Of a stretch of DNA of 64,000 nucleotides, positions 5,811-53,990 are shown in pieces. The translations under genes and the position numbers were made by a program. Position 1 is the stretch's first letter. Every line of letters starts with the position of its first letter. A model generated the notes under the pieces. The model saw nothing but the letters and a program-made list of their open reading frames with translations, was not told where the DNA came from and ran no database searches. The DNA is taken from contig JABDFA010000001.1 in the NCBI GenBank assembly GCA_013286795.1, forward strand, positions 38,195 to 102,194, given 5' to 3'. The DNA comes from Candidatus Babelota bacterium (GTDB taxonomy: Bacteria; Babelota; Babeliae; Babelales; JABDEC01).

Positions 5811-6232
5811 TTATTTAGTGATTTAAAAGTCATAATTAAAGCCATTAAACAAGTTAATCCAAGAATAATATATCCAACATCTGGTACAGGTCTATTTTTT
5901 TTAGGTGGTAAAAATCTTAACGTAACTTTATGATCAATTTCTGTATCTTCAACAAAAACTTTTGGCCAACCAAATAAATACGGTAGCCACCAAGTGTTGA
6001 TATGACCAAAAAGAATAAGAGACAAATATAAGATTAAAAATATTTTAAAATAAAAACCATAAAAGAAACTTCCTAAAATTAAGATCATTAATAGGACCCA
6101 ATTTATAAATAAAAAAAGTTTCCATGTAGGTTTATTTGGGAACTTATCAATATCATTTACGGGAGGAATTGGAATAAAGTGTATTATAAAGAACCAAATT
6201 GCAAAAACAAGTTGATATATTATTGTATTCAT
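5807..6232 (-). CDS. Hypothetical polytopic membrane protein
   Basis: 141 aa with about four hydrophobic helices. Its stop overlaps the neighbouring ORF by 4 nt. Confidence 0.5.
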   Translation of the reverse strand: MNTIIYQLVFAIWFFIIHFIPIPPVNDIDKFPNKPTWKLFLFINWVLLMILILGSFFYGFYFKIFLILYLSLILFGHINTWWLPYLFGWPKVFVEDTEIDHKVTLRFLPPKKNRPVPDVGYIILGLTCLMALIMTFKSLNN

Positions 6233-6259
6233 ATTAATTTCTCTTTTATTAAAAAATGG

Positions 6260-22509: not shown

Positions 22510-23595
22510 ATGAAGAAAATATTAATTTTTCTTATTGCTATATTTAGTACAGGTTTAATCTCTAGCAAATCAATTTTGTTTTATTCAGCAAATTGGGGTG
22601 ATATATTTTCAGATAATATCTCTTATTTTGATGGGTGTCCCATAAGCTCAAATAGAGATGAATGTAAGAAATTTCTATTTAATTTAAGAGCTACGTGTAA
22701 TTACTTAGGTTATGAAGTTAAGCAGGTATTTGATTTAAATAATATTAATAATTCTAATTTTGACTACCTTGTATGCTTTGATCTAAGACCGGAATATATG
22801 AACCAATTACCTAAATTCTCAAAAGAAAAGTTAATCGCATATTTATGGGAACCACCTACAACTTTATTGCATAATTATAATAAATCATATCATGAATTAT
22901 TTTGCAGGATTTTCACTTGGCATGATGATTTAGTTGATAATAAAAAGTATATAAAGTTTTTTTATCCTGTACTTAATTCATTAGATGTTGAAAAAAATAT
23001 AAATTTTAAAGATAAAAAATTATGTACTCTTATTGGGTCAGATAAATCATCGTCTGATCCTAACGAGCTTTATTCTGAAAGAAGAAGAGTAATAGATTTT
23101 TTTGAAAAATTAAATAATAATGATTTTGATTTTTATGGCATGTCCTGGGATAAAACAAAGTATAGAAATTATAAGGGACCAATTAGTACCAAGATTGATT
23201 ATTTAAAAAAATATAAGTTTTGTATAGCTTATGAAAACGAAAATGGCACTAAGGGTTGGGTAACAGAAAAACTATTTGATTGTTTTAATGCTGGTTGTGT
23301 ACCAGTTTATTGGGGAGCGCCAAATATTGGCCAATATGTTCCTAGTAATTGTTATATTGATAGAAAAAAATTTAGAAACACAGAAGAACTTTATCAATTT
23401 ATTAAAAATATTACCGAAGATGAGTATAACGAATATATTAAAAATATTTCTAATTTTATAGTAACTAGTAGTTCTTTTAAATATTCATGGGAAAATTTTG
23501 TTGATATTTTCTGCAAAAATCTTTTACCTGAATATGATAGAGAACTAGTATTTTCAGGACAAAAACTTGAACTTCTAAAGAGAATAGATAATTAA
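22510..23595 (+). CDS. GT10-family fucosyltransferase-like protein with leader
   Basis: 'YKFCIAYENENGTKGWVTEKLFDCFNAGCVPVYWGAPNI' is the GT10 motif. The leader is MKKILIFLIAIFSTGLISS. It is a paralog of the 1-957 gene. Confidence 0.8.
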   Translation: MKKILIFLIAIFSTGLISSKSILFYSANWGDIFSDNISYFDGCPISSNRDECKKFLFNLRATCNYLGYEVKQVFDLNNINNSNFDYLVCFDLRPEYMNQLPKFSKEKLIAYLWEPPTTLLHNYNKSYHELFCRIFTWHDDLVDNKKYIKFFYPVLNSLDVEKNINFKDKKLCTLIGSDKSSSDPNELYSERRRVIDFFEKLNNNDFDFYGMSWDKTKYRNYKGPISTKIDYLKKYKFCIAYENENGTKGWVTEKLFDCFNAGCVPVYWGAPNIGQYVPSNCYIDRKKFRNTEELYQFIKNITEDEYNEYIKNISNFIVTSSSFKYSWENFVDIFCKNLLPEYDRELVFSGQKLELLKRIDN

Positions 23596-24458
23596 TGTTA
23601 AAAATAAATAGATACTTAATTTTATTTATTTTTAGCGTTAAAATTTTTGCTGAAAATAAGGTCGATCTTATAGTATTTTCATATAATAGGCCAATGCAAT
23701 TGTATGCATTTCTTGAGTCTGTGCAAAAATTTGTAACCAATTTGTCTCAAATTAAAGTAGTCCATAGAATGGATGATAAATATGTTTCAGCTTATCAAGA
23801 AGTTCAAGAGCATTTTAAATGGGTAGAATTTTATAGACATCAAGATTCTACTGATTTTAAATATGTTACTTTAAAAAATATTTTTGAAACTTTTAATGAT
23901 TACGTTCTTTTTGCTGTAGATGATATCATAGTAACAGATTTTATTGATATAGATAAATGTGTAAATGCTTTAGTAGAATCTGAAGCTTACTGTTTTTTGT
24001 TACGGTTAGGTTCAAACATAAAAACTTCTTATATGATTGGCAAAGATAATTCTGCACCAAAAAATAATATCTTTAAAAATAATATTTATATTTATGAATT
24101 CAAAAATGGCGTAGGAGAATGGAATTACCCAAATAATCTTGATATGACTCTTTACAAAAAAAGTGATATTAAATCTGATATTTTTAGTCTTAATATGACT
24201 CGTCCAGGGAACTTTGAAGGCGATTGGGCTCTTATTCCTAAATTAGATAAAAAAGGATTATTTTTTGAACATTCAAAAATAGTTAATATACCAATGAATC
24301 TTGCTCAGGAAACGGGCAATAAAAACATGCGGCTTTACTCTACAGGTGAATTACTTAATAAATTTAATGAAGGTTATAAGATAGACATAAATGAGTTTTA
24401 TAAAATAAATAATGATTCACCACATATGGCATATGTTCCTAAATTTATAAAAAGATAA
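23595..24458 (+). CDS. GT-A-like glycosyltransferase (unclassified), paralog of 41224-42189
   Basis: 'DLIVFSYNRPMQLYAFLESV' is a GT-A N-terminal beta-alpha pattern and 'LFAVDDIIV' is a DxD motif. The leader is MLKINRYLILFIFSVKIFA. The junction with the upstream gene is TAATG. Confidence 0.55.
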   Translation: MLKINRYLILFIFSVKIFAENKVDLIVFSYNRPMQLYAFLESVQKFVTNLSQIKVVHRMDDKYVSAYQEVQEHFKWVEFYRHQDSTDFKYVTLKNIFETFNDYVLFAVDDIIVTDFIDIDKCVNALVESEAYCFLLRLGSNIKTSYMIGKDNSAPKNNIFKNNIYIYEFKNGVGEWNYPNNLDMTLYKKSDIKSDIFSLNMTRPGNFEGDWALIPKLDKKGLFFEHSKIVNIPMNLAQETGNKNMRLYSTGELLNKFNEGYKIDINEFYKINNDSPHMAYVPKFIKR

Positions 24459-24461
24459 ATC

Positions 24462-26024
24462 ATGTATAGAAAAAAATTATTTTTAAGTTTTATATTTTTA
24501 TGCACCTTTAATATCTATTGTTTAAAAATAAACAGAGTAATTTTGTCTACAGATAATAATCCGGTATATATGGAGTTTTGGCCAATAGTATCTAAATTGT
24601 GGAAAGATGTTATTGGAGTACAGCCTACATTAGCCTTTATTGCGGATAAATCAGTAAAAATAGATGAATCATTAGGTGATGTTATAAGATTTGAACCAAT
24701 TCCAGGTATTTCAACTGCAACATATGCCCAATGTATTAGATTATTGCTACCTGCTTATTTTGAAGATGAAGTTTGTATAACTTCAGATATTGATATGTTA
24801 CCAGTTAATAAAGATTATTTTGTTAATTCTATTAAAGGAATACCTGACGATTGTTTTGTAAATTATAAGAATGGTTATTATGAAAGAGATGGTTCTTTTT
24901 TGCAATATCCAATATGTTATAATGTTGCTAAGGGTAAAATTTTTAAAGAAATTTTTAAAATTGCTAGCATACAAGATATACCTTTAATTATCAAACAATG
25001 GGTAAGTAAAGGTTATGGTTGGAATACTGACGAAAGAATACTTTATAAGAGTTTGCATGAATGGTGTTATTTTAAATCAAGATTTATAAGATTGGGACAT
25101 CTGGATAAAGATAGAATAGATAGGTTTAGATATAGGGATCCTAAAGACGGAGAATGGTTTTTTCAATATGATGACAAATTATTACAGAATAATTTTTACG
25201 TAGATGCCCATTGCCCAAGACCTTACCATAAATACAAAAATGAAATTGATAATTTGGTTAATAAGTTAATTTTTAAATCTGAACTAGAAAAGCGAAATGA
25301 ATTTGTGATTATTGTACCTTCTTATAACAACGAAAAATGGTGCATAAAAAATTTAGAGTCCATTTTTAATCAGGGTTATTTAAATTATCAAGTAATATAT
25401 ATAAATGATTGTTCTACTGATAATACAGGCAAACTTGTACAAGAATATTTGAAATCAAAAAATTTAGAAAATAAATGTTGGTATATAGAAAATTTCGAAC
25501 GTAAAGGAGCTCTTGCAAATATATATCAATATGTTCATGCGTGTAAGAATAATCAGATAATTGTCCTACTTGATGGTGATGATTGGTTTGTTCATGAAAG
25601 CGTTCTGTCGATCCTAGATAAAGCTTATAAAAGTTCTGATATTTGGTTAACATATGGTCAATATATTGATACTAATTGTGTATTGGGCTGCGGAACTCTT
25701 TATCCAGAAAATATTATTAAAGAAAGATCTTACAGAGAAAATGAATGGCGAGCATCCCATTTGAGAACCTTCAGGGCTTTTTTATTTAAACATATTTGTA
25801 AAGAAGATTTATTATATGAAGGTAAGTTTTTCGATATGGCATGGGATTTGGCTTTTATGTTTCCTATGCTTGAAATGGCCGGCAAAAGATTTTGTTGTAT
25901 AGATCAAATTTTATATGTTTATAATTTAGATAATCCGATTAGTGATGCTAAGAAAGATAAAGATAGACAAGGTTTTTTAGATCGATACATTAGAAAAATG
26001 GCTAAATATGATATGTTAGATTAG
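24462..26024 (+). CDS. Two-module glycosyltransferase (GT-A-like plus GT2), paralog of 20958-22499
   Basis: 'ITSDIDMLPV', then 'FVIIVPSYNNEKWCIKNLESIFNQGYLNYQVIYINDCSTDNTG' and 'LDGDDW'. The leader is MYRKKLFLSFIFLCTFNIYC. Confidence 0.7.
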   Translation: MYRKKLFLSFIFLCTFNIYCLKINRVILSTDNNPVYMEFWPIVSKLWKDVIGVQPTLAFIADKSVKIDESLGDVIRFEPIPGISTATYAQCIRLLLPAYFEDEVCITSDIDMLPVNKDYFVNSIKGIPDDCFVNYKNGYYERDGSFLQYPICYNVAKGKIFKEIFKIASIQDIPLIIKQWVSKGYGWNTDERILYKSLHEWCYFKSRFIRLGHLDKDRIDRFRYRDPKDGEWFFQYDDKLLQNNFYVDAHCPRPYHKYKNEIDNLVNKLIFKSELEKRNEFVIIVPSYNNEKWCIKNLESIFNQGYLNYQVIYINDCSTDNTGKLVQEYLKSKNLENKCWYIENFERKGALANIYQYVHACKNNQIIVLLDGDDWFVHESVLSILDKAYKSSDIWLTYGQYIDTNCVLGCGTLYPENIIKERSYRENEWRASHLRTFRAFLFKHICKEDLLYEGKFFDMAWDLAFMFPMLEMAGKRFCCIDQILYVYNLDNPISDAKKDKDRQGFLDRYIRKMAKYDMLD

Positions 26025-41223: not shown

Positions 41224-42189
41224 CTATCTTTCTATAAATTGTGGAACATATTCCATATGGGGAGAGTTGTTGTTGATCTTATAAAATTGGCTAATGTCAA
41301 TTTTTAAACCAGATTTAAACTTTGTTAAAAGTTCTTGGTTAGAATATAATCCCATATTGCGGTTAGTAGATTGAGAATAACATAGGTTAAGTGGAATATT
41401 TAAAATCTTAGATTCTGCAAAAAATAAACCCTTTTTATTGTAATCAGATAAGTGATGCCAATAATATTCAAAAGTAGTTGGATTAACCATATTTATTGTT
41501 AATAAATCATTTTTAATATCTTCTTTTTTGTATATTGTCATATCGACAGTATTGGGGTATCTCCAATCTCCACAACTATTATTAAAAGTATACATGCAAA
41601 TATTATTATCAACCAAATTATATTCTGGAAGAGGAGTTGGGTTAATAAACATCATGTATGATTCTTTAATATTAAGTCCAAGTCGCAAATAAAATCCATA
41701 AGCATTAGTTAGTTTTAAAGCTTGCGTGCACTGTAAAATATCTATTTCATCTTTTACTATAATATCATCAACAGCATAGATTATATATTCTTCAGGTGAA
41801 TTAAAAGTGTATTCAAGAGTTAATATTTTAAAATCTGAATAAGGATCATTCCCCTGTTGATGAAATTTATAATGATTAAATCTTTTTTCGACTTCTTTAT
41901 ACGCATCCAAATAATCATGATCTGCTCTAAAAATTATGTGTGTTTCACCTAAATTTTTTACATACTTTTCTATAGATTCAAGAAGCGCATATAATTGTAA
42001 AGGTCTATTGTATGAAAATATAACTAGATCTGCTTTGTTTCCTGCAAATAAGTTTATAAAAATAGTTGAGAATAATGCTACTAAACATAATAATTTTTTT
42101 TTGGATTCGTATATAAGTCCGTTCGCCCTGAGCGATGTCTGAGCGACGAAGGAGTCGAAGACAGAGTCGAATGGGTTAACTATATTCAT
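41224..42189 (-). CDS. GT-A-like glycosyltransferase (paralog of 23595-24458) whose 5' end and start codon lie inside a GC-rich repeat
   Basis: 'ADLVIFSYNRPLQLYALLESI' and 'IYAVDDIIV' are present. The homology-supported body starts at '..KKKLLCLVALFSTIFINLFA', which has no canonical start of its own. In-frame ATGs occur only in or beyond the repeat (42189, 42375, 42384), so the end coordinate is uncertain. Confidence 0.6.
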   Translation of the reverse strand: MNIVNPFDSVFDSFVAQTSLRANGLIYESKKKLLCLVALFSTIFINLFAGNKADLVIFSYNRPLQLYALLESIEKYVKNLGETHIIFRADHDYLDAYKEVEKRFNHYKFHQQGNDPYSDFKILTLEYTFNSPEEYIIYAVDDIIVKDEIDILQCTQALKLTNAYGFYLRLGLNIKESYMMFINPTPLPEYNLVDNNICMYTFNNSCGDWRYPNTVDMTIYKKEDIKNDLLTINMVNPTTFEYYWHHLSDYNKKGLFFAESKILNIPLNLCYSQSTNRNMGLYSNQELLTKFKSGLKIDISQFYKINNNSPHMEYVPQFIER

Positions 42190-42323
42190 AAATATATTTA
42201 TGAATTCCCAGATATTATTTTTAATGAAACATTTAAAGCATAAATTACTTAAATTTTTTACCCATTCGACTCCCTCATTCGACTCGCGTAAACGCTCGCT
42301 CAGAGATCGCTCAGGGCGAACGG
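42119..42323. repeat. MITE-like GC-rich palindromic element (205 bp)
   Basis: The terminal inverted repeats are CCGTTCGCCCTGAGCGAT (42119-42136) and ATCGCTCAGGGCGAACGG (42306-42323). Imperfectly complementary GC-rich arms of about 60 nt flank an AT-rich centre. It is collinear with the 51149-51311 copy. Confidence 0.8.
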
Positions 42324-42433
42324 GATAAAGACAAGTTAATTTAATTTTTATATTAAAAATATGAGTATAATGCATAGTTATCACGAACGGATTTTAAATT
42401 TATCTTCCAACCAAATTAATTCCCTAACAGCTT

Positions 42434-43708
42434 TTAGGATTTTGCAGGTATTTCTTCACCATTATTTAACTTATTTTTTAGAGCAAGTTCATTTTGTTGT
42501 AATTTTTCCAAATAACACATTAAATTATGATACAAATGTGGAACCGCTGCTTTGATAGCATTCATAGTTGCATCTTTGCCAATGCTATATTCACCAGCAT
42601 GCCAAGCAGATTTGCTTAAAATTTCATGTCTAGTGTAATCATAAATTTGTTTATCAACAAAAAGTACCTCATTTTGAGGGTAAGGCAAATCTTTGGTCAT
42701 CTTTGCAAATAAAAAACAGGTTGGAATATTTTCTGGCCAATAATGTTCAGCAATTCTAATTAGTGGTTCTGCGCGATGTGATCTTAGTTGATAAGCTTTG
42801 AGATAATAATCCATAGCCATTTGCCAAGTAAATTTTTCATCTATTTTGGAAAGCGAATCAGATACTCTTGCAAGTCGATAAAATGTTTCATAATTTTCTT
42901 CATCCCAGCCAGGTTGATGAGAACGAAGTTCATAATATTTATAAGCATTATGCAAATCATTAAGACCTTCAAATGTTTGGGCTAAGTAAAATGTGGTGCG
43001 TGAATTTTCTGGATTTTTATTGTGATCTTTCAATAGTAGTTCTCTATCTCTAACCCAACGTTTTTGTGTAGCTTCTATTCCTCTGCTGGTAGGTTTATAT
43101 TCTAAGTATATATCTTTTGGAAGTCTATCATTACTAGAAATTGGTATTACTTCGTGGACAACTCCCATAAATCTACTATTTGAACCTTTTCTTATAAGTC
43201 TACAGTGGTAAAAATCTGTAGGATAACTGATTACGCGTATTAAATAGGCTTTACGAGTTAAATTATTTGCTTCCTTTTTACAAAAATCTAATAATCCTTC
43301 AACATTATGTGCATACCATTCCGCATCGATCATTAAAATAAATGCTGCATTTGGAAATTTCTCTTCAGCTAAATCAAGAGCTCTATTACGAGATGTTGAA
43401 AAATCAATAAAGGGTTCTTGAGCGATGTGCCCATTCTTTACATTATTTTGGTTAAAATAATCTTTTACTACATTAATTGTGTTATCGGTGGAACCGGTAT
43501 CAAAAATAAAGTAATCTTTTATTCCAGCTTTTATAAATGGTTCTAACGTTGCATTAATAACCTTTTCTTCATTTTTTACCATTAAAGTTACCACTAAAAG
43601 TGGATTGTAAATAACATCATCTAAATTAGGAGGGTATATTGAAAATGCATGAATAAATATTAGATTAGTGATAATAGTGAGTTGTAATAGATTTTTTTTG
43701 GATATCAT
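42434..43708 (-). CDS. GT2 glycosyltransferase with a C-terminal helical-repeat (TPR-like) region and a leader
   Basis: 'LVVTLMVKNEEKVINATLEPFIKAGIKDYFIFDTGSTDNT' and 'MIDAEW' are present. The C-terminal half has the helical repeats 'FYLAQTFEGLNDLHNAYKYYELR' and 'AMDYYLKAYQL'. Confidence 0.7.
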   Translation of the reverse strand: MISKKNLLQLTIITNLIFIHAFSIYPPNLDDVIYNPLLVVTLMVKNEEKVINATLEPFIKAGIKDYFIFDTGSTDNTINVVKDYFNQNNVKNGHIAQEPFIDFSTSRNRALDLAEEKFPNAAFILMIDAEWYAHNVEGLLDFCKKEANNLTRKAYLIRVISYPTDFYHCRLIRKGSNSRFMGVVHEVIPISSNDRLPKDIYLEYKPTSRGIEATQKRWVRDRELLLKDHNKNPENSRTTFYLAQTFEGLNDLHNAYKYYELRSHQPGWDEENYETFYRLARVSDSLSKIDEKFTWQMAMDYYLKAYQLRSHRAEPLIRIAEHYWPENIPTCFLFAKMTKDLPYPQNEVLFVDKQIYDYTRHEILSKSAWHAGEYSIGKDATMNAIKAAVPHLYHNLMCYLEKLQQNELALKNKLNNGEEIPAKS

Positions 43709-51148: not shown

Positions 51149-51311
51149 CCGTTCGCCCTGAGCGATGTTTGAGCGACGAAGGAGTCGAAAACAGAGTCGA
51201 ACGGGGTTTTTATATTGAAAAATAAATCAAAATTTTTAAAAATTTTTTACCCATTCGACTCCCTCTTCGTCTCGCGTAAACGCTCGCTCAGAGGTCGCTC
51301 AGGGCGAACGG
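51149..51311. repeat. MITE-like GC-rich palindromic element (163 bp)
   Basis: CCGTTCGCCCTGAGCGATGTTTGAGCGACGAAGGAGTCGAA... ...CGCGTAAACGCTCGCTCAGAGGTCGCTCAGGGCGAACGG. Both arms differ from the 42119 copy by only a few substitutions and single-base indels. It is intergenic, 37 nt 3' of the DOT1-like gene. Confidence 0.8.
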
Positions 51312-53630: not shown

Positions 53631-53990
53631 TTAGCTTTGACTAGGTCTTCTTACGTCTTTTTGTTTATTTGCAGGTTCTACAAATAATAGCGAAATAGCC
53701 TGTGCGGCAGCAGCCCATCCGGCTCTCATTAGGGTTGCGTTCCAATCGATTTTTCCATTGTCTCCAGATGTTCCTGCTATTAATACCAAGCTGATCAATG
53801 AACTCAATGCTACGCCTTGTCCTTTGCTTAAACTGCCATTTTTAACGGCAGCAAAAGAGATTAGCCTTGATAGTCCCCCAAAGCCAACGCCATATAATAA
53901 ATCATTTGAATTTATGTCAGCTTTTAGATTAGTTGCTGCAGAGCTTAACAATCCACCAAGTAAAATTGGTAAAAGAAATTTTTTGTTCAT
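53631..53990 (-). CDS. Small Gly/Ala/Ser-rich membrane or secreted protein
   Basis: The leader is MNKKFLLPILLGGLLSSAATNLKA. Gly-zipper-like hydrophobic stretches are present. Confidence 0.5.
   Translation of the reverse strand: MNKKFLLPILLGGLLSSAATNLKADINSNDLLYGVGFGGLSRLISFAAVKNGSLSKGQGVALSSLISLVLIAGTSGDNGKIDWNATLMRAGWAAAAQAISLLFVEPANKQKDVRRPSQS

Follow-up and report, generated by a model that had tools for sequence, protein, structure and literature searches.

The GT-A-like glycosyltransferase gene on the minus strand at 41224–42114 lacks a start codon at its expected site and is preceded by a 205-bp palindromic repeat, e1 (42119–42323), through which its reading frame stays open. Translation may run through e1 and add an N-terminal tail to the enzyme; a probability of roughly 45% is assigned to this explanation. 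If so, a selfish hairpin repeat would provide both the only usable start and the new N-terminal tail of a conserved enzyme. All positions refer to the window, the whole 64,000-nt stretch of DNA that was analyzed.

Anatomy and copies of the repeat e1

e1 has no assigned strand and consists of two GC-rich compound arms with an AT-rich center between them. The 28-nt terminal inverted repeats (42119–42146 and 42296–42323) are complementary at 27 of 28 positions, and inner inverted repeats of 16 and 12 nt flank the center. Folded as RNA in the mRNA sense, the repeat reaches −104.8 kcal/mol (z = −12.4). The 28-mer terminus occurs four times in the window and is absent from 100 shuffles. With these termini and a second copy, e2, at 51149–51311, the palindromic element described in the initial annotation is real.

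In the mRNA sense (minus strand) arm A (42257–42323) comes first. It reads PVRPERSLSERLRESNEGVEWV in the frame of the gene and contains an additional small hairpin, GCG-TTTA-CGC. The AT-rich center (42180–42256) forms the apical loop and varies between copies. It carries an in-frame ATG (42189–42187), at the position of which e2 has TTC. Arm B (42119–42179) reads NPFDSVFDSFVAQTSLRANG, and the same phase of this arm is open in e2 too. The peptides encoded by e1 in the gene frame include NPFDSVFDSFVAQTSLR and VRPERSLSER. The copy e2 is 163 bp long, has no assigned strand and is located between two convergent genes; none of its six frames is open.

Three further full copies and two solo arms (L005:6407 and L007:5473) are found on four contigs of the related metagenome Ga0207097. 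Copies of the family range in size from 159 to 228 bp, have the same termini and contain no transposase gene. There is no target-site duplication: inspection of the flanks of the five full copies (e1, e2, L004a, L005b and L006a) reveals no common direct repeat, not even one of 1 nt. Neither an intrinsic terminator nor a promoter was called on the gene strand in e1. Rfam gave only sub-threshold matches in the window, to models of long-hairpin plant miRNA precursors, and the Rfam and tRNA scans detected no RNA genes or tRNAs across its whole length. e1 belongs to a lineage-specific family of non-autonomous palindromic repeats of the REPIN/MITE type with arms of about 60–67 nt, and its host genome is AT-rich and Dependentiae-like.

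The exact 28-nt terminus has no match in a collection of species-representative genomes that does not contain this genome. In unrelated phyla, a looser version of the terminus motif has over 105 matches, none of which belongs to the e1 family. e1 ends in CCGTTCGCCC, and related repeats of other phyla read CCGTTCGTCC, containing CGTC. The terminal module CCGTTCGYCCTGAGCGA...GTCGAAGG (the CCGTTCGCCCTGAGCGA module) recurs in Chloroflexota, Myxococcota, Sphingomonadaceae and Planctomycetota. This recurrence across distant phyla suggests a repeat superfamily that is very widespread and apparently has no name. A literature search for the e1 sequence or for palindromic repeats in Dependentiae found nothing relevant.

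The glycosyltransferase gene and its lost start codon

The complete open reading frame of the gene extends from 41224 to 42384 (minus strand, 386 aa). Its body (41224–42114) encodes an N-terminal anchor helix, a KADLVIFSYNRP motif and an invariant DD. A paralog at 23595–24458, which starts with MLKINRYLILFIFS, shares 51% identity with it. The GT-A label of the initial annotation had no match at the sequence level in Pfam, NCBIfam or PDB; it is borne out by structure prediction. The AF2 model has a pLDDT of 93.8 and a pTM of 0.89, and Foldseek against the PDB retrieves SpsA (1h7q, E = 1.3e-8) as well as TarP and GnT-I with a probability of 1.0. Asp116 and Asp117 (AVDDI), a DxD-type metal/nucleotide-sugar motif, are invariant in 34 family members. 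The model thus confirms the predicted α/β/α fold of a GT-A glycosyltransferase. Throughout the family the N-terminus consists of a short n-region followed by one hydrophobic helix, without exception. As yet the family carries no annotation, and its members are mostly associated with Dependentiae. Upstream and in the same orientation lies a gene of the GT2 family (42434–43708, minus strand) with a normal AAGGA Shine-Dalgarno (SD) motif and ATG. Synteny with this gene is retained in the orthologous loci L001 and L002, and both genes probably share one transcript.

The gene body is intact through 297 codons in a genome of 28% GC. Compared to the 93%-identical ortholog L001, dN/dS is 0.095 at a dS of 0.36. 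Lineage-specific substitutions number 6 in the window and 7 in L001; these nearly equal counts indicate no relaxation or rate acceleration in the window lineage. Judging from these substitution patterns, the gene body is clearly under strong purifying selection now, or was until very recently. An error of sequencing or assembly in the homopolymer stretch next to the repeat, masking a normal in-frame ATG, is barely credible. Runs of A9, T5 and T3 are present and an adjoining repeat breaks assemblies, but independent contigs of the Logan assembly of run SRR8433578 agree with the window at every base of the spacer, of either e1 junction, of the A9 run and ATGTTT and of the 5' end that lacks a start. 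Furthermore, synteny on both flanks agrees with the relatives.

A normal ATG is kept in all three orthologs (L001, L002 and L003). In L001 a different family of palindromic repeats occupies the same slot and abuts a normal SD motif and ATG, and L002 and L003 retain the remnant of a palindromic repeat there. A palindromic repeat in the junction of the GT2 and GT-A-like genes is the normal state. e1 adjoins the expected site of the start codon, and no in-frame ATG, GTG or TTG is present between 42119 and the leader or anchor helix, as the initial annotation stated. Its further proposal of an insertion onto the original start codon is not supported, since the ortholog ATGs map 13–31 nt downstream of the e1 edge and a repeat in this slot is normal. 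The start was therefore lost by separate small changes and was not overwritten. Exact excision of e1, considered as a model of the pre-insertion sequence, would bring a TTG into frame (MSLSLIYESKKK...) and was rejected. No single insertion history is fixed, because the alignment to the three orthologs is ambiguous in the AT-rich stretch.

The ancestral start region (42086–42106, minus strand) is scrambled. It contains ATC (42106–42104), the A9 run (42102–42094) and an out-of-frame ATG (42088–42086). ATC 42106 and ATG 42088 share a common frame, one base off that of the gene body. ATG 42088 opens an ORF of 27 codons, MFSSIILNYFYKLICRKQSRSSYIFIQ* (42005–42088, minus strand), and its ATG-TTT is like the one with which L002 and L003 start. 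A small indel may therefore have thrown the native start frame out of the gene frame, leaving a fresh pseudogene that is not productively translated; one candidate is an extra T just after ATG 42088, deletion of which yields MLVALFSTIFINLFAGNKADL. This is the leading alternative to translation through e1, though a somewhat unlikely one. It is favored by the A-rich, accessible context of ATG 42088 (opening energy 4.9 kcal/mol), by the ancestral ATG in all three orthologs and by the existence of the paralog, which could make the loss of the GT-A-like copy tolerable. A frameshift of this kind is usually fatal to a gene, but the body has 297 lesion-free codons, a dN/dS of 0.095 and no excess of substitutions. 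Inactivation would thus have to be very recent.

Alternatively, the shifted frame could be recoded, either by a +1 shift of ribosomes started at ATG 42088 on the T5 run (TAT TTT TAT, 42060–42064) or by slippage of the polymerase on the A9 run. A9 runs are sites of transcriptional slippage in endosymbionts, and on the T5 run tRNA-Phe would re-pair perfectly one base downstream and land in the gene frame. A stimulatory signal (rare or stop codon, SD motif) is absent from the T5 run, and the A9 run precedes ATG 42088, with no upstream ORF in another frame that can be joined to the gene. Both forms of slippage were rejected on these grounds. The shift would also produce a poorer anchor, with MFSSIILNYF-INLFA as leader, and recoding is considered very improbable.

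Candidate starts and possible translation through the repeat

The frame of the gene is open through all 205 bp of e1, as first noted in the initial annotation, whereas all five remaining frames are closed. The two others on the gene strand contain 6 and 7 stops and no start past the last stop. Openness is not a trait of the family, because a stop interrupts e2 in the equivalent frame; L005b and L006a are also closed in the frames corresponding to the gene frame of e1. When the arms were kept and the center was shuffled, the gene frame stayed open in 4.4% of the trials (P = 0.044). Chance openness is therefore unusual, not extraordinary, and 4% is non-negligible because the case was picked for being open. 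A search of the protein universe with the e1-encoded peptide gave zero matches, and the parent protein itself was also not recovered.

Upstream of the conserved core the gene has three in-frame canonical starts, ATG 42189, ATG 42375 and GTG 42384; the next one in the 3' direction, TTG 41910, is already inside the core. Both ATGs had been listed correctly in the initial annotation, whereas its third ATG, at 42384, is a GTG. ATG 42375 and GTG 42384 are located in the AU-rich spacer that separates the GT2 stop from e1 (42324–42393, minus strand), which is preceded by an in-frame stop (42394–42396). Only the ATG in the loop (42187–42189) agrees with the suggested element-borne start, and the other two codons lie upstream of the element. 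The estimate of 40 or more foreign residues is inaccurate. A start at ATG 42189 yields MNIVNPFDSVFDSFVAQTSLRANGLIYESKKK followed by the anchor helix, with fewer residues than that, 24 element-coded and 29 ahead of the KKK, and a start at ATG 42375, where the 383-aa database entry P0001 begins, adds 87–91 residues.

The opening energies of ATG 42375 (5.0 kcal/mol), GTG 42384 (5.6 kcal/mol) and ATG 42189 (8.2 kcal/mol) compare well with 60 reference starts (median 7.7, maximum 17.7 kcal/mol). The canonical starts upstream of e1 and in its loop are thus as accessible as normal starts. So is the out-of-frame ATG 42088 with 4.9 kcal/mol, and the native start frame may therefore simply be frameshifted. 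None of the three in-frame codons has an SD motif, which favors the pseudogene, although just 28 of the 64 ORFs of the window possess one.

A candidate for a non-canonical start downstream of the element, which in the initial annotation counted against an element-borne one, does exist. The in-frame ATA at 42112–42114 (minus strand), 5 nt 3' of e1, would give the family-typical N-terminus (M)YESKKKLLCLVALF, and initiation there would produce a protein of normal length, (M)YESKKKLLCLVALFSTIFINLFAGNKADL, with e1 as a mere hairpin of the 5'-UTR. Both the architecture and the length of this N-terminus match the family. Bacterial translation table 11 allows ATA, ATT and ATC as rare start codons, and a similar pattern is seen at ATA 56072 in the window and at an ATC in the purD gene of L006. 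In the case of ATA 56072, which belongs to an ankyrin gene (54909–56264), the ortholog search for comparison with an ATG start gave distant ankyrin matches only. In the bacteria tested, ATA initiates translation very poorly, and here the base of the hairpin buries its ribosome-binding window, which takes 34.8 kcal/mol to open, twice as much as the worst of the 60 reference starts. There is no usable SD motif either, just ACGGA 3 nt upstream. ATA 42114 was rejected as a start on accessibility, and initiation at this codon is regarded as improbable.

Translation through e1 would proceed as follows. e1 fills the short junction of the two co-oriented glycosyltransferase genes, and the downstream gene has lost its own ATG through small changes 13–31 nt downstream of the repeat, not through the repeat itself. 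As the gene is under purifying selection, the cell most likely continues to produce the enzyme. Initiation would take place at an accessible canonical codon in frame, either ATG 42375 or GTG 42384 in the spacer or ATG 42189 in the loop. Starting in the spacer would demand that the whole repeat be an open frame, as it is. Ribosomes would then traverse the entire repeat, or its last third from ATG 42189. The putative product, presumably functional, is a GT-A enzyme with a repeat-encoded tail of 29 to 91 residues before the membrane-anchor or signal helix. This position probably tolerates additions because the tail would stay in the cytoplasm or be cleaved off together with the leader.

In Rickettsia conorii, N-termini that carry RPE-1 are expressed (PMC3733652), and in-frame fusions of MITEs and RPEs have been reviewed (PMC10969869). 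Additionally, in a mini-census of nine cases, a small and partly ascertained sample that carries little weight, the open frame is that of the gene in six of the seven with any open frame. Against read-through, ribosomes must unwind a hairpin of about −105 kcal/mol. The ORF of L001 is open through its upstream repeat despite a perfect SD motif and ATG downstream, so such open frames arise without need. If the gene were a pseudogene, the open frame of e1 would be coincidental, aided by the stop-poor GC-rich arms (chance openness 4.4%), and the 383-aa P0001 would be an artefact of the gene caller. Callers over-extended the ortholog through unrelated repeats too (P0002, 376 aa), and REPs at the 5' ends of ORFs and at annotated N-termini are often non-coding (PMC3733652). 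On the other hand, the sole open frame of e1 is that of the gene and it continues through an open spacer with ATG and GTG, which makes chance unlikely.

Wider significance and comparison with known systems

If translation passes e1, it would represent a route for gene survival after loss of a start codon and for new protein termini, and Dependentiae, a phylum that has received little study, would gain its first example of this. More generally, and quite speculatively, hairpin repeats at gene 5' junctions in this lineage may be kept systematically in open phase with the downstream gene, because translation would have to pass through the hairpin, and they would serve as translated leaders and as a rescue from start loss. 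Translation would melt the structure that hides a downstream start, or the repeat would supply the start and a disposable N-terminal tail in front of a leader that is cleaved or acts as an anchor. The clearest case of this doubtful generalization would be e1 with its glycosyltransferase gene; others could be L004a with a pseudopilin gene, the purD hairpin of L006 and the ankyrin gene 54909–56264. Gene prediction in this lineage carries ORFs on through GC-rich repeats, as with P0001, P0002, the ankyrin gene and purD, so many N-termini in databases may be wrong.

The enzyme resembles SpsA, TarP and GnT-I/POMGnT1-like GT-A enzymes with an N-terminal signal anchor in its predicted fold, the DD motif and the single N-terminal helix. 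In contrast to these, it has no sequence match in Pfam, NCBIfam or PDB, and its transferase activity is only predicted.

e1 shares several properties with the Rickettsia palindromic elements (RPE; Ogata et al. 2000; PMC10969869, PMC3733652). Both are palindromic repeats of ~100–200 bp in AT-rich genomes of the intracellular type, and both lie in phase inside annotated ORFs, to which they add a repeat-encoded peptide. RPE-1 located at the N-termini of proteins is reportedly expressed in vivo. Unlike RPEs, the e1 family lacks an inherently open frame, e2 being interrupted by stops in each of its six frames, and only two copies are present in the 64 kb. e1 sits at a junction and 5' end and not within a conserved domain, and its translation is putative. 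In-frame coding RPEs are defined by ORF flanks that on both sides are homologous to the uninterrupted protein and by a family-wide ORF for a conserved peptide; with e1, just the downstream side is homologous to the family, the upstream side is an AT-rich spacer with no homolog support, and the repeat family has no such ORF.

Correia elements (CREE, Neisseria), ERIC, RUP, BOX and Nezha are bacterial MITEs that likewise are small, bounded by terminal inverted repeats and inserted near gene 5' ends; these non-coding repeats form co-transcribed hairpins (PMC10969869). Correia elements duplicate a TA target, carry an IHF site and have promoter-like ends; e1 showed none of these features. Like MITEs, the e1 family has terminal inverted repeats and dispersed small copies lacking a transposase gene, but its five full copies show no target-site duplication. 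Bacterial MITEs can alter expression or create fusions (PMC10969869).

REP, REPIN and BIME sequences (Bertels & Rainey 2011, PMC3116915; Di Nocera 2013, PMC3733652) are GC-rich imperfect palindromes that form inverted doublets and long hairpins, as e1 does. They occur mostly between genes of one transcription unit, lack a target-site duplication, include solo arms and coexist as several families per genome. At annotated N-termini they often act as non-coding post-transcriptional elements. The arms of e1 differ in their length of ~60 nt, their modular build around a long AT-rich center and the apparent absence of a GTAG tag, and the literature search found no report of such elements in the host phylum. 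The e1 family nevertheless has the hallmark of REPINs, two inverted GC-rich palindromic units in a hairpin together with solo remnants. e1 is thus RPE/REP-like, a kind of repeat at the front of a gene that is already known from other intracellular bacteria.

The palindromic element and its open frame

The 205-bp palindromic repeat e1 (42119–42323) lies at the 5' end of a minus-strand glycosyltransferase-like gene (GT gene, body 41224–42114). Its 28-nt termini are complementary at 27 of 28 positions, and inner inverted repeats of 16 and 12 nt lengthen the arms to about 61–67 nt each (arm A, 42257–42323, first in the mRNA; arm B, 42119–42179). The arms are GC-rich in a window of ~28% GC and the 77-nt centre is AT-rich. 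In mRNA sense the element folds into a single long interrupted hairpin (−104.8 kcal/mol, z = −12.4). Rfam gave only sub-threshold matches of e1 to generic long-hairpin miRNA-precursor models, and neither a terminator nor a gene-strand promoter was called. The window has four occurrences of the terminal 28-mer, against none in 100 shuffles, which reveals a second copy, e2 (51149–51311). This copy has the same orientation and a centre shorter by ~40 nt, and is sited between two convergent genes.

As the initial annotation stated, the frame of the GT gene is open through the whole of e1; it is the sole open one among the six. All six frames are closed in e2 and the equivalent frame has a stop, so the openness is specific to e1 and not a family property. 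Arm B is open in gene phase in both copies, and the codon matching ATG 42189 of e1 is TTC in e2. When the centre of e1 was shuffled with the arms kept, the gene frame was open in 4.4% of trials.

The GT gene and its orthologs

The GT gene ORF comprises 41224–42384 (−), 386 aa counted from GTG 42384; the database form of its product (P0001, 383 aa) starts at ATG 42375 (−). The product has no match in Pfam, NCBIfam or the PDB sequences. Its family has > 600 members of 286–305 aa, several labelled Candidatus Dependentiae, and a paralog in the window (23595–24458) is 51% identical. Every member begins with a short n-region, often basic, and a single hydrophobic helix, after which comes K(A/V)DLVIFSYNRP. 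The Foldseek neighbours of an AlphaFold model from the family alignment (pLDDT 93.8) are GT-A glycosyltransferases (SpsA, E = 1e-8; TarP; GnT-I), and D116 and D117 are invariant. This bears out the earlier label "GT-A-like".

A large glycosylation gene cluster spans 19060–43708, with many GT-like genes including two GT-A paralogs. It also contains a GT10-like fucosyltransferase C-terminal domain (22510–23595) and GT2 genes at 24462–26024 and 42434–43708, the latter being the co-oriented upstream neighbour. A syntenic Logan contig additionally has matches to GT11, Gly_transf_sug, TylF and Methyltransf_21.

Comparison with orthologs, as the initial annotation had proposed, covered three syntenic loci: L001 (ATG at 6253, 93% identity to the window protein), L003 (ATG at 19, 79%) and L002 (ATG at 6001, 71%). 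All keep a canonical ATG directly ahead of the hydrophobic helix. In L001 the slot between GT2 and the GT gene (6060–6256) holds a composite palindromic repeat of ~190 nt from a family other than that of e1, also found at 985–1136 and 56389–56471 of the window. Its terminus ...GTCGAAGGATACGA adjoins the ATG and gives an AAGGA Shine-Dalgarno (SD) motif. Repeat remnants GTCAAAGGACATA (L002) and CGATGGACATA (L003) lie 8–11 nt ahead of their ATGs. The ancestral, normal state of this slot thus includes a hairpin repeat. The window spacer contains CCGTTCGTG (42382–42390 (−)), which overlaps GTG 42384 and matches the repeat terminus CCGTTCGTCC in the latter's first 8 nt, either by chance or as a possible leftover of an older repeat.

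The window counterpart of the orthologs' start region, 13–31 nt downstream of e1, reads ATACGA-ATC-C-A9-TTATT-ATG-TTT. The proposal that e1 landed on or next to the original start therefore holds as to proximity, but e1 did not overwrite it. The start was lost through separate small changes, whose alignment to the orthologs is ambiguous in this AT-rich stretch.

The body of the gene has a dN/dS of 0.095 against L001 (dS 0.36), compared with ~0.9 for the leader and 0.045 for GT2. With L003 and L002 as outgroups, six body substitutions fall on the window lineage and seven on that of L001, which gives no indication that constraint on the body has relaxed. Any inactivation must be very recent. Such a recent pseudogene, with a coincidentally open frame and an artefactual database protein, is the main rival explanation, plausible but less likely than not; the L001 ORF was over-extended by the gene caller through its repeats (P0002, 376 aa) despite its ATG, so such extensions arise without need. 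A sequence error is scarcely credible. In an independent assembly (Logan, run SRR8433578) two contigs, each breaking inside e1, are identical to the window: the first runs through GT2 and the spacer into arm A (49 nt), the second through the GT gene 5' end (A9, ATGTTT and the junction) into arm B (29 nt). An assembly error is accordingly unlikely.

Candidate starts

Between e1 and the leader there is indeed no in-frame ATG, GTG or TTG; the first downstream is TTG 41910, within the conserved core. The in-frame ATGs reported at 42189 and 42375 are present, but the codon at 42384 is GTG. An SD-like motif precedes 28 of 64 window ORFs, and no good one is found at the candidate starts of the GT gene. 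Opening energies, the cost of unpairing −18 to +12 around a start in the folded mRNA, are 5.0 kcal/mol for ATG 42375, 5.6 for GTG 42384 and 8.2 for ATG 42189 in the apical loop of e1. Sixty reference ATG starts of the window have a median of 7.7 (IQR 5.6–8.9, maximum 17.7), and the ortholog ATGs 11.6–13.8 kcal/mol. In accessibility, the canonical candidates upstream of e1 and in its loop match ordinary starts.

A non-canonical start downstream of e1, which the initial annotation had set against its own reading, is disfavoured. Initiation at the in-frame ATA 42114 would yield a textbook family N-terminus, but ATA is a poor start codon and this one is sequestered in the base of the hairpin stem (34.8 kcal/mol), making it improbable. 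Recoding from ATG 42088 (4.9 kcal/mol) is more doubtful still. The frame of this ATG, shared with ATC 42106, is one base off the gene body and closes after 27 codons; removal of one T after the ATG would give MLVALFSTIFINLFAGNKADL.

The best explanation, with a probability of roughly 45%, is that the enzyme is still made. Ribosomes would initiate at 42375/42384 and/or 42189 and translate through e1, placing an e1-encoded tail of 29–91 residues ahead of the anchor/signal helix. The tail would be cytoplasmic or lost with the leader and should be tolerated. Initiation at 42375 or 42384 demands that the whole of e1 be open, as found; from 42189 only arm B would be translated. The earlier figure of 40 or more foreign residues is inaccurate: 24 are element-coded from 42189 (29 before KKK) and 87–91 from 42375. 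In sum, the initial observation is confirmed and its interpretation partly supported.

Repeats at other genes and in other genomes

Nine pairs of a repeat and its downstream gene were compared across the window and the recovered loci. In six of the seven with any open frame, it was the gene's frame that was open (p ~0.02, calculated from frame counts), a lead only, given the small and partly ascertained sample. In a 224-bp e1-family copy on a metagenome contig (L004:2181–2936, Ga0207097_1022) one of six frames is open. It is continuous with a downstream pseudopilin-like gene (…SSSG|FSFIEVALTIAIIGMM), and the arm motif GAAGAAGGAGTCGAATGGGT places AAGGAG-N4-ATG in the pseudopilin frame.

The 5' end of the gene for the ankyrin protein P0121 (54909–56264 (−), 451 aa) crosses two other GC-rich palindromic repeats, notably at 56090–56215 (PFPFALSIARSAMYRRV and GSWFDTFYFARLRRTLTTNG). 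As at the GT gene, the interval from the repeats to a signal-peptide-like stretch (KNLLSIFCLTSLTSIYS) has no canonical start; ATA 56072 is in frame, and the nearest ATG thereafter is 56006. On contig Ga0207097_1093 (L006:5468–5790) guaA and purD are separated by an e1-family copy, and the annotated 5' end of purD contains a 46-nt hairpin repeat. The first codon of the conserved PurD N-terminus (ILLVGNGGREHA) is ATC, 9 nt past GAAGGA of this hairpin repeat, and no canonical start intervenes; upstream, ATG 5685 is preceded by an AAAGGA SD of its own. Either the hairpin repeat was inserted in phase, or purD starts at ATC.

Further GC-rich islands of the window are a three-part composite of small hairpin repeats between convergent genes (985–1136), a hairpin of 65 nt that overlaps the stop codon of dnaK (56389–56471; ORF end 56459), a 187-nt composite upstream of dnaK (58589–58775), 59055–59099 and 53687–53743. 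Rfam and ARAGORN found no RNA genes across the entire window. Two products are eukaryote-like, as is typical of amoeba-associated bacteria: a leucine-rich-repeat-like sequence with a C-terminal RING-like motif (CAICLD...CPYC; 54165–54902 (+)) and the ankyrin protein, which carries the motifs CPVCR and CPLCR.

The exact e1 family turned up only in the window and on four contigs of metagenome Ga0207097, the sample of the 93% relative, with three full copies (159–228 bp) and two solo arms there. No target-site duplication was found at e1-family copies. The looser terminal motif CCGTTCGYCCTGAGCGA, with GTCGAA 25–50 nt on, occurs in multi-copy repeats of Dehalococcoidia, Sphingomonadaceae, Myxococcota, Planctomycetota and others. 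In GTDB genomes the module CCGTTCGYCCTGAGCGA(AGTC)GAAGG forms palindromic multi-copy repeats at host GC contents of 40 to 75% (Dehalococcoidia, Sphingomonas/Sphingobium, Kofleriaceae/Archangium, Planctomycetota, Burkholderiaceae, Binatia). Given this spread, the e1 family is apparently a local offshoot of a REP-like superfamily of very wide distribution, for which no name was found.

A literature search on such repeats in Dependentiae returned nothing. Elsewhere, REPs at annotated ORF N-termini are often non-coding and act as post-transcriptional elements, and in Rickettsia conorii N-termini decorated with RPE-1 are expressed (PMC3733652). In-frame fusions of MITEs and RPEs have been reviewed (PMC10969869). 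Both sides of the coding-versus-non-coding question on N-terminal repeats are already described in the literature.
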